Shown in pieces: positions 26,587 to 30,929 of a stretch of DNA of 32,000 nt (position 1 is its first letter; every line of letters begins with the position of its first letter). The DNA is from Nostoc sp. PCC 7120 = FACHB-418. Its GTDB lineage: Bacteria > Cyanobacteriota > Cyanobacteriia > Cyanobacteriales > Nostocaceae. The notes under the pieces were generated by a model that saw only the letters and a list, made by a program, of their open reading frames with translations, was not told where the DNA came from and ran no database searches. The position numbers and the translations under genes are program-made. The stretch lies in the NCBI RefSeq assembly GCF_000009705.1, contig NC_003272.1:3360001-3392000 (forward strand), written 5' to 3'.

Positions 26587-26874
26587 TTAAGTTGCAGCTT
26601 TATGTAGTGCAGCTAGTCTTTCATACTCTGCTTGTTCTTCTGCCAAATCTGTATCAATTTCTTCCCGGTTAGCATGATAGTAAGTTATCGCTGCATAGAC
26701 CTGCGCTATATTCAAATGGTTTTTGTCAGCAGCAATTTCTTCGGCGTTATAACCTTGCTTATATAAAGCTGCAATTCGACGCACAGATGTACCTGTTCCG
26801 GCAATAATGGGACGACCACCACGGAAGTTAGAATCTCTGGTAATAAGTGTACCGATATCAGTGATAGTTACCAA
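26587..26874 (-). CDS. DUF433-domain protein (antitoxin-like HTH)
   Basis: 95-aa ORF. GGRPIIAGTGTSVRRIAALYKQGYNAEEIAADKNHLNIAQVYAAITYYHANREEID matches the DUF433 signature. Confidence 0.85.
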   Translation of the reverse strand: MVTITDIGTLITRDSNFRGGRPIIAGTGTSVRRIAALYKQGYNAEEIAADKNHLNIAQVYAAITYYHANREEIDTDLAEEQAEYERLAALHKAAT

Positions 26875-27127: not shown

Positions 27128-29920
27128 TTAATGACGATTTAGCGATCGCCATAACCAGTAGAATGGTAAAAAGAATATTCTCAACAATAATTGTAAAATT
27201 CTACCTAATTGCCGTCGCCAAATAGCAACGGGAGTTAACTGGCGTTGCAGAAATGCCAAGTTTCCTCGAATTACCACCGTAGTGGGATGATTAACCCCTA
27301 ACACCCGTTGACACATCTGCAAAGCTTCCAAGTACAGGGGTTCGGCTTCTCCATACCTGCTTTGGCTTTCATAAAGTAGAGCTAAATTGTTTAAGCTAAT
27401 AACCATATCGGGATGGTCGCCCACAAACAGACGCTTTCTCATGGCTAAAGCTTCCAAGTACAGGGATTTGGCTTCTCCATACCTGCCTTGGCTTTTGTAA
27501 AGTGCAGCTAAATTGTTCAAGCTAATAACCATATCGGGATGGTCGCCCACAAACAGACGCTTTCTCATGGCTAAAGCTTCCAAGTACAGGGATTTGGCTT
27601 CTCCATACCTGCCTTGGCTTTTGTAAAGTGCAGCTAAATTGTTCAAGCTAGTAGCCACATCGGGATGGTCGCCCACAAACAGGCGCTTTCTCATGGCTAA
27701 AGCTTCCGAATACAAGGGTTCGGCTTCTCCATACCTGCCTTGGCTACGGTAAAGTCCAGCTAAATTGTTCAAGCTACTAGCTACATCGGGATGGTCGCCG
27801 ACAAACAGGCGCTTTGTCATGGCTAAGGCATCAATGTACAGGGGTTCGGCTTCTCCATACCTGTCTTGGCTACGGTAAAGTCCAGCTAAATTGTTCAAGC
27901 TACTAGCTACATCGGGATGGTCGCCGACAAACAGGCGCTTTGTCATGGCTAAGGCATCAATGTACAGGGGTTCGGCTTCTCCATACCTGCCTTGGCTACG
28001 GTAAAGTTCAGCTAAATTGTTCAAGCTACTAGCTACATCGGGATGGTCGCCGACAAACAGGCGCTTTGTCATGGCTAAGGCATCAATGTACAGGGGTTCG
28101 GCTTCTCCATACCTGCCTTGGCTACGGTAAAGTCCAGCTAAATTGTTCAAGCTACTAGCTACATCGGGATGGTCGCCGACAAACAGGCGCTTTGTCATGG
28201 CTAAGGCATCAATGAACAGGGGTTCGGCTTCTCCATACCTGCCTTGGCTACGGTAAAGTTCAGCTAAATTGTTCAAGCTAGTAGCCACATTGGGATGGTC
28301 ACCCACAAACAGACGCTTTGTCATGGCTAAGGCATCAATGTACAGGGGTTCGGCTTCTCCATACCTGCCTTGGCTATAGTAAAGTCCAGCTAAATTGTTC
28401 AAGTTTAGTGCGACATCGAAATTGTCGCCCACAAACAGGCGCTTTGTCATCGCTAAAGCATCAATAAACAGGGGTTCTGCTTCTCTATACCTGCCTTGGC
28501 TACGGTAAAGTTCAGCTAAATTGTTCAAGCTAGTAGCCATATTGGGATGGTCGCCTGGAAATACAGCTTGGCAAACCTTGAGGCATTCCTGATTCCAAGG
28601 TTCTGCTAATTGATATAGTCCTTGTCCGTTGTAAAATCTGGCTACGCCCACAAATACCCAAATTACTTCATCATTGGGGACTGATGCTGGGGAATTTATC
28701 TGTTCCTCACCTGCTTGATTAATGTCGTCAATTACCCGATTTCCTAAGTCTTCAATGTGGGGAACAACATCTTTGATGCGTTCGATATCCTTCGAGGTGG
28801 GTAACGGAGGAAGACTTTGAGCTTTATTTATCATCGCCCAAGCAAAGGTGTTTTCTAAAACCGCTTTCATCTCCCAAGCATCAGTTAATTGTTCTTGCAA
28901 GAACCACCGCACTAGAGTATGAATTTGATAATATCCTTGGCTGTCTTGTACCAGTTGCAGCAAGTTACGTTTGTAGAGTTGCTTTTTTGCCTCGTTTAAT
29001 TCCTCTGCTGACAAACCTAACCCCCCTAACCCCCCTTCTCTACCAGGGCATGGGGGAATTAAAGCCTCTCCCCGCGTCGGGGAGAGGTTTGGAGAGGGGT
29101 CATCTTCTTCCTCTCCTCCACTAGTCGCCACCCACACCACCAAATCCCACAGAATGGACTGGGGAGAAAATAAACTCAAAAATCTGCCTAATTGTTGGGC
29201 TAATGGGTCAAGTTCTGACCATGTTAAAGCAAAGGCGGCTTTCACTCCCAATTGGGTTGAGGTGAGGGTTTCCCGGTTTTGTAAGGCTGCTTCTGCTAAT
29301 TTGCGCTGTTGCAATTGTTCTAACATGACATCTAGAAACAAATCCGGGTCTTGTCGCAAATAAGCCCCCACTAACTCTATCCCCAAAGGCAAATATTCCA
29401 GAGATTTACAAATTGCGTTGGCAAAGACTGGTTGATTATCAACTCGCCTGTCTGTGTTTCCCAACAGTCCTTTTAACAGTTCTAATGCTTTGTCTGGTTC
29501 TTTTTCTGGGGAAAGAACATCTAAGGGAATATCTTGAATAAAATTTGGTTCTAAATTCCGCAGGCGAGTAGTCACTAAAACGCGAAAACGGTTATCAGTG
29601 GGGATAACTTCCCGTAAGTTGGCTAGGTCTGTGACATCATCAAAAATAATTAATATGGGTAAAAGAGATTCAGCATATTGCAGCCAACACCAAGCGATTT
29701 GTTCCTTGAGGGTTAATAGTCTTCCCCCTAGTTCTTGGGGAATCTCTAAACCAAGACCGATAAAAGACTCCAAAATTCCGGCGGCGAGATTGTTGGCTCT
29801 ATCATTAAACCAAGCAACACCATCATAATTAGCTTGATATCGTCTGGCGTATTGGGTGGCTAATTCGGTTTTGCCTATGCCTCCCATCCCTGATATTGCC
29901 ACATAATTACCACGCTGCAA
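27128..29920 (-). CDS. NLR-like STAND NTPase: NB-ARC (AP-ATPase) domain plus ten 42-aa TPR units. The called TTG start is almost certainly not the real N-terminus.
   Basis: Walker A GMGGIGKT, Walker B LLPILIIFDDV, RVLVTTR and the GLPL-like YLPLGIELVGAYL are present. Ten tandem HPDVASSLNNLAGLYRSQGRYGEAEPLYIDALAMTKRLFVGD units follow. The frame stays open upstream (…PRGSVHFVGREQELRLLHEDL) back to an in-frame TGA at 30032-30034, with no ATG/GTG/TTG in between. Confidence 0.9.
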   Translation of the reverse strand: MQRGNYVAISGMGGIGKTELATQYARRYQANYDGVAWFNDRANNLAAGILESFIGLGLEIPQELGGRLLTLKEQIAWCWLQYAESLLPILIIFDDVTDLANLREVIPTDNRFRVLVTTRLRNLEPNFIQDIPLDVLSPEKEPDKALELLKGLLGNTDRRVDNQPVFANAICKSLEYLPLGIELVGAYLRQDPDLFLDVMLEQLQQRKLAEAALQNRETLTSTQLGVKAAFALTWSELDPLAQQLGRFLSLFSPQSILWDLVVWVATSGGEEEDDPSPNLSPTRGEALIPPCPGREGGLGGLGLSAEELNEAKKQLYKRNLLQLVQDSQGYYQIHTLVRWFLQEQLTDAWEMKAVLENTFAWAMINKAQSLPPLPTSKDIERIKDVVPHIEDLGNRVIDDINQAGEEQINSPASVPNDEVIWVFVGVARFYNGQGLYQLAEPWNQECLKVCQAVFPGDHPNMATSLNNLAELYRSQGRYREAEPLFIDALAMTKRLFVGDNFDVALNLNNLAGLYYSQGRYGEAEPLYIDALAMTKRLFVGDHPNVATSLNNLAELYRSQGRYGEAEPLFIDALAMTKRLFVGDHPDVASSLNNLAGLYRSQGRYGEAEPLYIDALAMTKRLFVGDHPDVASSLNNLAELYRSQGRYGEAEPLYIDALAMTKRLFVGDHPDVASSLNNLAGLYRSQDRYGEAEPLYIDALAMTKRLFVGDHPDVASSLNNLAGLYRSQGRYGEAEPLYSEALAMRKRLFVGDHPDVATSLNNLAALYKSQGRYGEAKSLYLEALAMRKRLFVGDHPDMVISLNNLAALYKSQGRYGEAKSLYLEALAMRKRLFVGDHPDMVISLNNLALLYESQSRYGEAEPLYLEALQMCQRVLGVNHPTTVVIRGNLAFLQRQLTPVAIWRRQLGRILQLLLRIFFLPFYWLWRSLNRH
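27290..28549 (-). repeat. Ten tandem 126-bp TPR-coding units, several nearly identical at the DNA level
   Basis: The motif CTACATCGGG recurs at 27781, 27907, 28033 and 28159 (period exactly 126), and I saw only 1-3 nt differences per unit. A second near-identical pair lies at about 27403 and 27529. Confidence 0.95.
29018..29104. repeat. Small palindromic GC-rich repeat element embedded in-frame in the NB-ARC/TPR gene
   Basis: CCTAACCCCCCTAACCCCCCTTCTC...CCTCTCCCC-GCGTC-GGGGAGAGG-TTTGGAGAGGGGTC, with a perfect hairpin at 29065-29087. It encodes DPSPNLSPTRGEALIPPCPGREGGLGGLG. It resembles the CCCTCTCC/GGGGAGAGG element at 9100-9160. Confidence 0.55.
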
Positions 29921-30031
29921 ATCTTCATGCAGCAGTCTGAGTTCCTGTTCTCGACCGACGAAATGAACGGAACCACGAGGTATATATTTTGTGGGGGTTA
30001 ACTTTGTCTGTTCCCTGCCAGACGACTGTAG

Positions 30032-30472
30032 TCAAAAATTAAAACTACTACCTCTTTGGTCAATAGTTTGATTTTGTGCGGCATTAACTGCTTTTTGAAT
30101 GTTTTGGTTAAAAGTTGTAGGAAATGGATGTTGCGATTTTTCTATGGTTGCTTTAATTTCTTCGAGAATTTGAGCCAAATTTTTGGGAGGATTAACTTCT
30201 GCTGCTGCGGCTAATTCCTGTACAGCTTGCTTAACTTCTGGGTGCGCTTGAGTTGCTGTTTCTACATCAATTACAGCTTTACCATAATCCAGGGGTTCGT
30301 CTGATGCTTTTTCAATGGCGACTACAGTCTGGGGAGAGTGTTTTCTCAAGGTGACGAGAAACTTACTAGTTTTATCCCAGAGAGTTTCACCGATTATTTC
30401 CCCGGTTCTTTCTAAGGCTTTGGTGGCTAGGACTGTGCCAATGGCGATCGCCGCAGTAGTTAGTGGTTCCAT
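30032..30472 (-). CDS. 146-aa all-helical ORF with a hydrophobic N-terminal helix and Q/N-rich tail; a probable N-terminal effector module of the downstream NLR-like gene (same frame, separated by one TGA)
   Basis: MEPLTTAAIAIGTVLATKALERTGEIIGETLW... has a hydrophobic/amphipathic first helix. The tail is TFNQNIQKAVNAAQNQTIDQRGSSFNF. The stop TGA 30034..30032 lies exactly 38 codons, in frame, upstream of the called NB-ARC start. Confidence 0.7.
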   Translation of the reverse strand: MEPLTTAAIAIGTVLATKALERTGEIIGETLWDKTSKFLVTLRKHSPQTVVAIEKASDEPLDYGKAVIDVETATQAHPEVKQAVQELAAAAEVNPPKNLAQILEEIKATIEKSQHPFPTTFNQNIQKAVNAAQNQTIDQRGSSFNF

Positions 30473-30641: not shown

Positions 30642-30830
30642 CAATCAACTTAGTTTCGTGACGAATCAACTTAGTTTGGTGACCAATCAACTCAGTTTCG
30701 TGACCAATCAATTTAGTTTCGTGACCAATCAACTTAGTTTCGTGACCAATCAACTTAGTTTCGTGACCAATCAACTTAGTTTCGTGACCAATCAACTCAG
30801 TTTCGTGACCAATCAACTTAGTTTCGTGAC
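30642..30830. repeat. Nine tandem copies of the 21-bp unit CAATCAACTTAGTTTCGTGAC
   Basis: Units start at 30642, 30663, 30684, 30705, 30726, 30747, 30768, 30789 and 30810, with 0-2 substitutions each. The array is open in frames on both strands only because 21 is a multiple of 3 and the unit has no stop. Confidence 0.95.
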
Positions 30831-30929
30831 CAACGCAAGTTTTTTCAGTGAGTTCACTAGCACACAGATATAACATTATGGAGTAATAAGCTATTCTGCT
30901 TTTAAGTTGCATAATCAATCGTGAAGGCT

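Follow-up and report, generated by a model that had tools for sequence, protein, structure and literature searches.

The stretch of DNA analysed here, referred to as the window, covers 32,000 nucleotides of Nostoc sp. PCC 7120 = FACHB-418 (contig NC_003272.1, positions 3,360,001 to 3,392,000 of the forward strand). On its minus strand, a small gene encoding a helical module of 146 aa ends in a TGA stop codon, and the same reading frame then runs on into the NB-ARC–TPR body of an NLR-like protein. From 30472 down to 27128 this frame holds 146 amino acid codons, one stop, 967 further sense codons and a final stop. An RNA hairpin begins 8 nt past the inner stop. We propose, with a probability of roughly 0.65, that the TGA at 30034-30032 works as a stop programmed to leak, which would yield both the free 146-aa module and a 1114-aa fusion protein from one gene. 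The coordinates of the features are collected in Table 1.

The preliminary description of this locus, made from the letters of the sequence, had reported a single in-frame TGA (TTT-TGA-CTA) between the module and the NB-ARC part, and 37 codons without ATG, GTG or TTG between that stop and the TTG at 29920. Translation in the same frame confirmed the single stop, and the sequence indeed contains none of the three start codons in frame over those 37 codons. The same description considered the intervening codons to be STAND-like, and domain searches agree with it, as the Pfam matches to AAA_16 and NB-ARC begin at post-stop residues 24 and 33 respectively, both upstream of the TTG. The NB-ARC domain was matched with E = 4e-14 and 52.8 bits (cut-off 23.5) and TPR_12 with E = 3e-156 and 508 bits in Pfam, while the NCBIfam profile FxSxx_TPR gave 364.6 bits against a cut-off of 300, with an alignment that starts at post-stop residue 18. 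The downstream protein is a STAND or NLR-like protein, in which an NB-ARC NTPase domain is followed by a repeat sensor domain. Module, linker and body together would make up the predicted 1114-aa read-through product.

Table 1. Features of the module–sensor locus (positions in the window; all read on the minus strand)
Feature	Positions	Strand	Remarks
Helical N-terminal module, 146 aa (sense codons)	30035..30472	minus	ATG at 30472; from the ORF (open reading frame) list
In-frame TGA, proposed recoded stop	30032..30034	minus	last codons AAT TTT TGA, then CTA
8-nt spacer CUACAGUC	30024..30031	minus	opens with the +4 C; codon +1 is CTA
RNA hairpin	30006..30023	minus	5' arm GUCUG 30023-30019; loop GCAGGGAA 30018-30011; 3' arm CAGAC 30010-30006
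Conserved 3' tail AAAGUUAA plus CCCCC	29993..30005	minus	near-invariant nucleotides
Covariance-model match to the stop and hairpin element	29987..30037	minus	model R1, 64.5 bits, E = 7e-10
Linker and start of the NTPase domain (…GSVHFVGREQELRLLHED)	29921..30031	minus	37 codons without a canonical start
NB-ARC–TPR body	27128..29920	minus	from TTG at 29920 to the stop at 27130-27128

Three readings of the inner stop had been left side by side in the preliminary description, namely a sequencing error, a very recent nonsense mutation that turned the gene into a pseudogene, and regulated UGA read-through. The sequence TTT TGA CTA and the next 117 nt were identical in 10 of 10 independent assemblies read, of which four are NCBI genomes and the others metagenome assemblies from ENA and JGI; this refutes the sequencing error. 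In the assembly collection, 95 blocks carry an entry for the identical 146-aa product, and the same protein is also recorded from Anabaena sp. FACHB-709. The recent mutation is refuted as well, since the stop is conserved across Nostocales and beyond, standing at the same position in more than 100 loci of many genera, and the downstream frame is open and under purifying selection at the protein level. When a single genome is viewed, one stop inside an otherwise intact frame of 1114 codons does fit a pseudogene, and decayed copies exist in the family (L003, L027, L048 and L099). However, no sister locus carries an intact fused gene, and neither of the marks of a pseudogene, a sense codon in orthologues or relaxed constraint downstream, was found. 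The chance that a plain pseudogene or an assembly or sequencing error lies behind the TGA is practically nil. Read-through of the UGA was thus left as the reading best supported by the comparisons. The hairpin, the conservation across the family and the TAG variants described below, all absent from the preliminary description, carry most of the weight.

A total of 473 homologues of the module were found, in genera including Nostoc, Anabaena, Brasilonema, Stigonema, Dolichospermum, Aphanizomenon and Mastigocladus, and nearly all of the 120 among the matches listed have 144-147 aa. When 1.84 billion cluster representatives were searched with a profile, 351 clusters at 50% identity were returned, nearly all of 120-170 aa. 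We fetched 80 genomic loci encoding module relatives and walked each of them past the module stop, counting a continuation as long when it reached at least 100 codons or ran off the contig. The module loci that end in TGA had a long in-frame continuation in 50 cases and a short one in 7, whereas those ending in TAA or TAG had a long one in a single case and a short one in 21 (Fisher's exact p = 3e-12 for stop type against long downstream ORF). The sole long TAA case, L027, is decayed; the TAA in question lies within the NB-ARC region and is secondary. Stand-alone copies of the module are typically 132 aa long, end in TAA or TAG and have nothing downstream. When a junction-spanning query (module, W and 99 aa) was searched against 5.8 billion proteins, no protein covered both halves, the maximum query coverage being 59%. 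The intact fused gene with TGG or another sense codon, which was to be expected in relatives if the stop were a mutation, was not found among those proteins. Because TGA is associated with the long continuation and no intact fusion was found, the stop is under selection, with TGA tied to the fused layout.

The only copy with a sense codon at the stop position is again L027 (4439-4441), where TGA is replaced by TGG (Trp); the ATG of this copy is gone too and a TAA has appeared 31 codons on, so that it is a decayed copy. In two other loci, L048 and L111, a second stop (TAG) stands two codons past the TGA and the hairpin is intact.

In 49 of the TGA loci, frame 0 past the stop stays open for 138-1230 codons, and the other two frames hold some 6.4 stops per 100 codons. 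In 42 of these 49 loci, one has to go 16-108 codons past the stop, into the domain, to reach the first canonical start in frame. According to Pfam, the downstream parts comprise NB-ARC(-TPR), NACHT–HEAT–NCC-H, CHASE2, FGE-sulfatase, PsbP-like and TPR proteins.

The nucleotides around the stop are also far from ordinary. The +4 base was C in 41 of the 49 TGA junctions, compared with 2 of 30 TGA stops of flanking ordinary ORFs (p = 5e-12). Codon +1 was CTG in 19 junctions, CTA in 14, GTG in 6, CCA in 4 and another codon in the remaining 6. Among the flanking long ORFs, TGA is the rarest stop (30/153) and is never followed by CTR. The AGUCG stretch of the spacer is near-invariant. UGA followed by C is reportedly the weakest bacterial termination signal, and UGA-CUA is a classic leaky context of alphaviruses and mammals. 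The enrichment of C at the junctions thus matches the weak termination expected of a read-through site.

An independent view of the element was obtained from metagenome contigs, which were scanned with a pattern of the hairpin region (AGTCGYCYGNNNGGGAACRGRYAAAG) that excluded both the stop and the module. The scan returned 52 loci. In every one of them an in-frame stop precedes the pattern by exactly 7 nt, as TGA in 40 loci and as TAG in 12. An upstream ORF precedes every stop, with 134-187 aa in most complete cases, and most stops are followed by a long in-frame ORF; the few short continuations (1-63 codons) look like decayed copies. The TAG copies form one family, which was recovered from several sequencing projects (L084, L086, L088, L089, L094, L105, L118, L119, L121, L124, L128 and L131), and their intact continuations of 701-787 codons encode NB-ARC–TPR proteins. 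The junction of this TAG family reads …YYPSD(T/N)NKEH-stop-LESSGREQTKLAPT…

The upstream modules of the hairpin-anchored loci include divergent subfamilies that share the N-terminal helix MEPLT…AIA…TKALEKTGEK. At L109 (JAAUYH010089630.1), the TGA and hairpin are preceded by a 309-codon ORF for a DUF676/PGAP1-like alpha/beta-hydrolase (285 aa scanned) and followed by a P-loop protein; therefore the joint is not tied to one module family. The motif was absent from the IMG/VR viral contigs. Overall the element looks like a general joint, composed of a short N-terminal module, a stop, 8 nt, a hairpin and a sensor or NTPase. Judging from their sequences, more than 100 cyanobacterial immune-receptor-like genes carry this combination of stop and hairpin.

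The consensus of the element is TGA CTR NAG TCG YCY GAM SGG GAA CGG RYA AAG TTA AMT CCC, and it is conserved at the nucleotide level, synonymous sites included. RNAalifold independently placed a 5-bp hairpin in the alignment, with its start 8 nt past the stop. Across 48 distinct sequences, 97.9% of the hairpin cells were paired, compared with 23-60% in slid controls. Three of the five pairs showed changes on both sides; one of them occurs as UA in 27 sequences, CG in 18 and UG in 3, never unpaired, and another as GC in 43 and CG in 2. None of 500 shuffles reached the observed covariation score. In the alignment, both pair types were found within at least 4 different upstream tail subtypes, and therefore point to repeated switches rather than one inherited change. 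The copy in the window has its own U-A variant, and the hairpin is the minimum-free-energy fold of the window RNA. Two further pairings are less clear. The loop GGG and a downstream CCC, a candidate pseudoknot, are paired in about 90% of the cases with one double change only, and UGACU with AGUUA, a candidate outer helix, is paired in 89.6% with zero compensatory change, the changes that occur breaking pairs.

Codon-position entropies separate the two constraints that act past the stop. They were 0.38/0.37/0.42 over codons 1-13 (the element), without periodicity, and 0.33/0.21/0.60 over codons 14-38 in 17 related loci, with coding periodicity although this region lies upstream of the canonical starts; the P-loop region gave 0.17/0.08/0.67. 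Because codons 1-13 and the next 25 differ in this way, the element is constrained as RNA and the linker as frame-0 protein. At L011, a 1-nt insertion in the loop keeps the RNA sequence and alters the peptide, and the ORF is in frame with the stop for 728 codons. The conservation of stop, frame, context and hairpin and the coding selection on the linker are shown by the sequence comparisons.

The covariance model of the element gave 53 matches in 593 kb, all of them at module stops, and one in the 32 kb of the window. No match was obtained at module loci ending in TAA or TAG or elsewhere in the window or the flanks. Each locus contains one copy of the element, and an inverted partner is absent. 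The element matches no Rfam family, as a scan of 29800-30200 gave chance matches only (snoRNA and miRNA, E > 2).

The joint thus combines a conserved in-frame stop, a start-less coding region in the same frame, a weak termination context and a 3' RNA structure, as is expected of a read-through site. From this we infer that read-through occurs and also what its efficiency, the inserted residue and the role of the module may be. The majority of ribosomes would stop at the TGA and release the free 146-aa helical module. A minority would read the UGA by a near-cognate tRNA, likeliest tRNA-Trp, so that insertion of Trp is expected, and would stay in frame. These ribosomes would then translate the linker and the NB-ARC–TPR body to give the 1114-aa fusion. 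The weak UGA-C context should favour this event, and the hairpin 8 nt downstream would sit at the mRNA entrance while the stop occupies the A site. A spacer of 8 nt is also the geometry of known frameshift and read-through stimulators. Stop and hairpin may in this manner act in filamentous cyanobacteria as a reusable joint that connects short modules, in most cases from this helical family and in one case an alpha/beta-hydrolase, to many sensor or NTPase bodies. The probable logic is that one gene supplies the sensor-fused and the free module in a fixed ratio, with the fused form in the minority. Upon oligomerisation of the STAND sensor, the fused copy might engage free copies by homotypic contacts.

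Several points weigh against programmed read-through. The support for it is comparative throughout, and we know of no bacterial cellular gene for which read-through stimulated by RNA structure has been established. With 5 bp and about -6.5 kcal/mol, the hairpin is short, and its energy does not stand out from that of shuffled sequences (z of about -0.7). Two loci from Oscillatoriales (Dapis and Okeania), L028 (4439-4981) and L029 (3859-4008), have TGA-CTG or TGA-CTA and an in-frame continuation with no hairpin, and the hairpin may therefore not be essential. Paralogue recombination, rather than selection on RNA, could account for part of the nucleotide conservation and co-variation. Finally, in the six loci in which GTG directly follows the TGA, ordinary translational coupling is possible. 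As to what is encoded past the stop in L028 and L029, the continuation is a small protein with the hydrophobic stretch …KSFWW(L/F)II(L/S)LCLLSIPI…

One rival explanation is that of two separate genes, in which the TGA terminates efficiently, the sensor is made by termination-reinitiation or from a non-canonical start, and the hairpin serves coupling or mRNA processing. The candidate starts would be the CTG, CTA or GTG right after the stop, or a conserved ATT/ATA Ile codon at position 17, and the FxSxx_TPR profile does begin right beside that Ile codon. CTG is also the commonest +1 codon, and annotation pipelines already call two genes. However, ATG was found at codon +1 in 0 of 101 junctions and GTG in only 2 of the 52 hairpin-anchored ones, and implausible starts (CTA, CCA, CCG, CAG, GAA and ATC) make up about 45%. 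The NACHT, CHASE2 and FGE-sulfatase versions have no conserved start-like codon in common. Coupling goes with an AUG, GUG or UUG that overlaps or adjoins the stop, and the window has CTA there; coupling also needs no special stop context, whereas the stop is almost always TGA-C, the weakest terminator. Moreover, an independent start past the hairpin would not hold its ORF in frame with the stop, yet at nearly every junction examined that frame is held. We therefore regard two genes as unlikely. It is more improbable that the element primarily has another role, such as that of a site for RNase processing, for RNA stability or for protein binding, or that of a recombination joint through which modules are shuffled, and that the downstream protein is made by another route. 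The loop GGGAA and the 3' tail AAAGUUAA do exceed what a simple hairpin roadblock explains, and the variety of parts found on either side of this one joint is what a shuffling junction would show. Yet such a role leaves the fixed 8-nt distance to the stop, the TGA-C and the kept frame (including at the L011 indel) unexplained, and a shuffling repeat is at odds with the single copy per locus that has no inverted partner.

A dedicated recoding machinery, either selenocysteine insertion directed by a hairpin resembling a selenocysteine insertion sequence (SECIS) or A-to-I editing of UGA or UAG to UGG, is very improbable. What the joint has in common with a bacterial SECIS is a hairpin soon after an in-frame UGA, with a loop start 14 nt downstream and G residues in the loop, and editing to UGG could in principle act on both UGA and UAG. 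The editing motif of TadA is UACG in a loop, which is absent here. Twelve loci use TAG, which selenocysteine decoding cannot read. Homologues with a Cys codon are lacking too, given that none of the 5.8 billion proteins searched spans the junction and the sole sense variant is the TGG of the decayed copy. The site is predicted to be a disordered interdomain linker rather than a redox centre, and Rfam gave no SECIS match. The selenocysteine-decoding trait has moreover been reported as not detected in Cyanobacteria (PMC1794560). Three further candidates were tried and rejected: ribosome hopping on the variable take-off codon and the preserved frame, transcriptional slippage because no homopolymer is conserved, and a dispersed repeat or miniature inverted-repeat transposable element because there is one copy per locus, always at the junction.

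What the module does may be approached from its structure and its relatives. The AlphaFold2 (AF2) model is a 7-helix bundle (predicted local distance difference test 84.9, predicted template modelling score 0.79) whose last 8 residues are disordered. Residues 5-17, as read from the sequence, form a stretch of hydrophobic or small residues. Foldseek retrieved no PDB relative of the model (best E = 0.39), and no family for the module was present in Pfam, NCBIfam or PADLOC. At E <= 0.1, Pfam returned only chance-level matches to OmpH, TetR_C and DUF7432, and no EAD or EACC1 model. In its more distant relatives the module is a true N-terminal domain within a protein of 600-900 aa, which supports programmed read-through, and in three of these it is fused to a body with a GxxGAGKST P-loop that may be read as dynamin-like. 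Stand-alone 132-aa copies ending in TAA or TAG were seen among the loci walked, and genuine fusions among the distant relatives. A role of the module as a membrane-active effector is speculative.

For viruses and eukaryotes there is ample documentation of programmed stop-codon read-through; in bacteria it is, to our knowledge, virtually confined to examples from phages and to leaky stops of sporadic occurrence. The gag-pol junction of murine leukaemia virus (MuLV) consists of a UAG, an 8-nt spacer and a pseudoknot, and the joint likewise has a stop with a structure about 8 nt downstream. The leaky UGA-C context, often with CUA or CUG, is common to the joint and to alphaviral and mammalian read-through. 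Viral and eukaryotic read-through sets a fixed ratio of short to extended product, which would be expected for the joint too; the logic proposed for the module may be likened to retroviral Gag and Gag-Pol, or to the coat and A1 proteins of Qbeta, with their fixed low ratio of fused to free product. In contrast to these systems, the joint belongs to bacterial chromosomal and plasmid genes, has a 5-bp hairpin with a conserved loop and only a candidate pseudoknot, and is reused in a modular manner across many paralogous immune-like genes. In phage Qbeta, tRNA-Trp reads the UGA of the coat gene at low frequency and gives A1, a minor extended form of an abundant protein, and both forms are needed. 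The joint differs from this case in lying in cellular genes instead of an RNA phage, in its extension by a 967-aa STAND NTPase and in its conserved downstream hairpin.

With respect to its protein partners, the module resembles the effector-associated domains (EADs), which are small non-enzymatic helical N-terminal domains of NTP-dependent conflict systems in multicellular bacteria (Kaur et al. 2020, PMC7159879). In those systems a given domain is also found on proteins separate from the core protein, and homotypic coupling was proposed for it (PMC7159879). The module is likewise small and helical, and its partners NACHT, NB-ARC, FGS/FGE-sulfatase and TPR come from the same repertoire. Unlike the EADs, it has no Pfam EAD match, and its free and fused copies are proposed to come from one gene via the recoded stop. 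In the two-gene EACC1-protease systems (Kaur 2020; Evans et al. 2025, PMC12642450), the gene of a small protein stands directly 5' of that of a large sensor, as here. EACC1 is a membrane-pore death effector of alpha+beta type with a transmembrane helix, which is activated by a partner caspase. The module similarly starts with a hydrophobic or amphipathic helix. It differs in being all-helical, in the absence of a protease and in the shared frame of the two ORFs on either side of a conserved stop. The joint is neither a SECIS nor a pseudogene, and it is not a described EAD or EACC1 family. The terms 'stop codon', 'readthrough' and 'TGA' do not occur in PMC7159879, and stop codons go unmentioned in the key Aravind-lab papers on these conflict systems. 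The full-text literature searched on read-through, recoding and in-frame stops in cyanobacteria and in NLR, NACHT and STAND proteins contained no description of the joint.

If programmed read-through is true, a structured read-through signal conserved across more than 100 cellular genes would be the first for bacteria, and it would provide an RNA motif testable on bacterial ribosomes. A new regulatory layer for NLR-like receptors is suggested, in which stoichiometric co-production of the free and the sensor-fused form parallels the adaptor logic of death domains and EADs and the dosage of the receptor would become tied to translation fidelity. A further step, namely that the element is a dedicated cis-acting recoding cassette by which death or adaptor modules are plugged into NLR-like sensors, and that it ties the dose of armed receptor to translation fidelity, is offered tentatively and must be called doubtful. 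If it holds, the armed receptor could rise under translational stress or phage attack, and fidelity itself would be an input to immunity. In Anabaena, stop read-through rises upon loss of the TrcR repressor, and read-through reporters for this organism already exist (PMC10272220).

Read-through would also change how these genes are annotated, since hundreds of 'hypothetical 146-aa proteins' would each be merged into a single recoded gene with the 'N-terminally truncated NB-ARC/NACHT proteins' or the unannotated gaps that follow them. On a plasmid of Nostoc sp. C057 (L133, 4501-6045), RefSeq lists the module as a 'hypothetical protein' and starts the NB-ARC gene 88 nt past the stop. For a plasmid of Nostoc sphaeroides (L134, 4501-8237), the partial gene table of PLSDB has no downstream gene, and 32 open codons follow the TGA.

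A 126-bp tandem array at 27321-28555 (9.8 copies, 93% match) encodes the 42-aa TPR units of the body. In assemblies that share the identical module, the downstream product was called at 924, 882 and 798 aa, which suggests copy-number polymorphism of the TPR units or collapse of the repeat during assembly. A GC-rich palindromic insert lies within the NB-ARC–TPR ORF at 29012-29091, with the arms AAGCCTCTCCCCG and CGGGGAGAGGTTT, and is translated in frame as …SPNLSPTRGEALIPPCPGREGGLGGLG…; the insert is similar to the small dispersed repeats of cyanobacteria and would be tolerated in coding sequence. A 21-bp tandem array at 30642-30833 (9.1 copies, 94% match) is located 170 bp upstream of the module ATG on the minus strand. 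This array gives rise to spurious ORFs on both strands, one of which reads HETKLIG heptads, and it has the look of an STRR-type repeat of Nostoc, placed in the promoter or the 5' region. A 95-aa ORF at 26587-26874 follows the NB-ARC–TPR gene on the same (minus) strand after about 250 bp.

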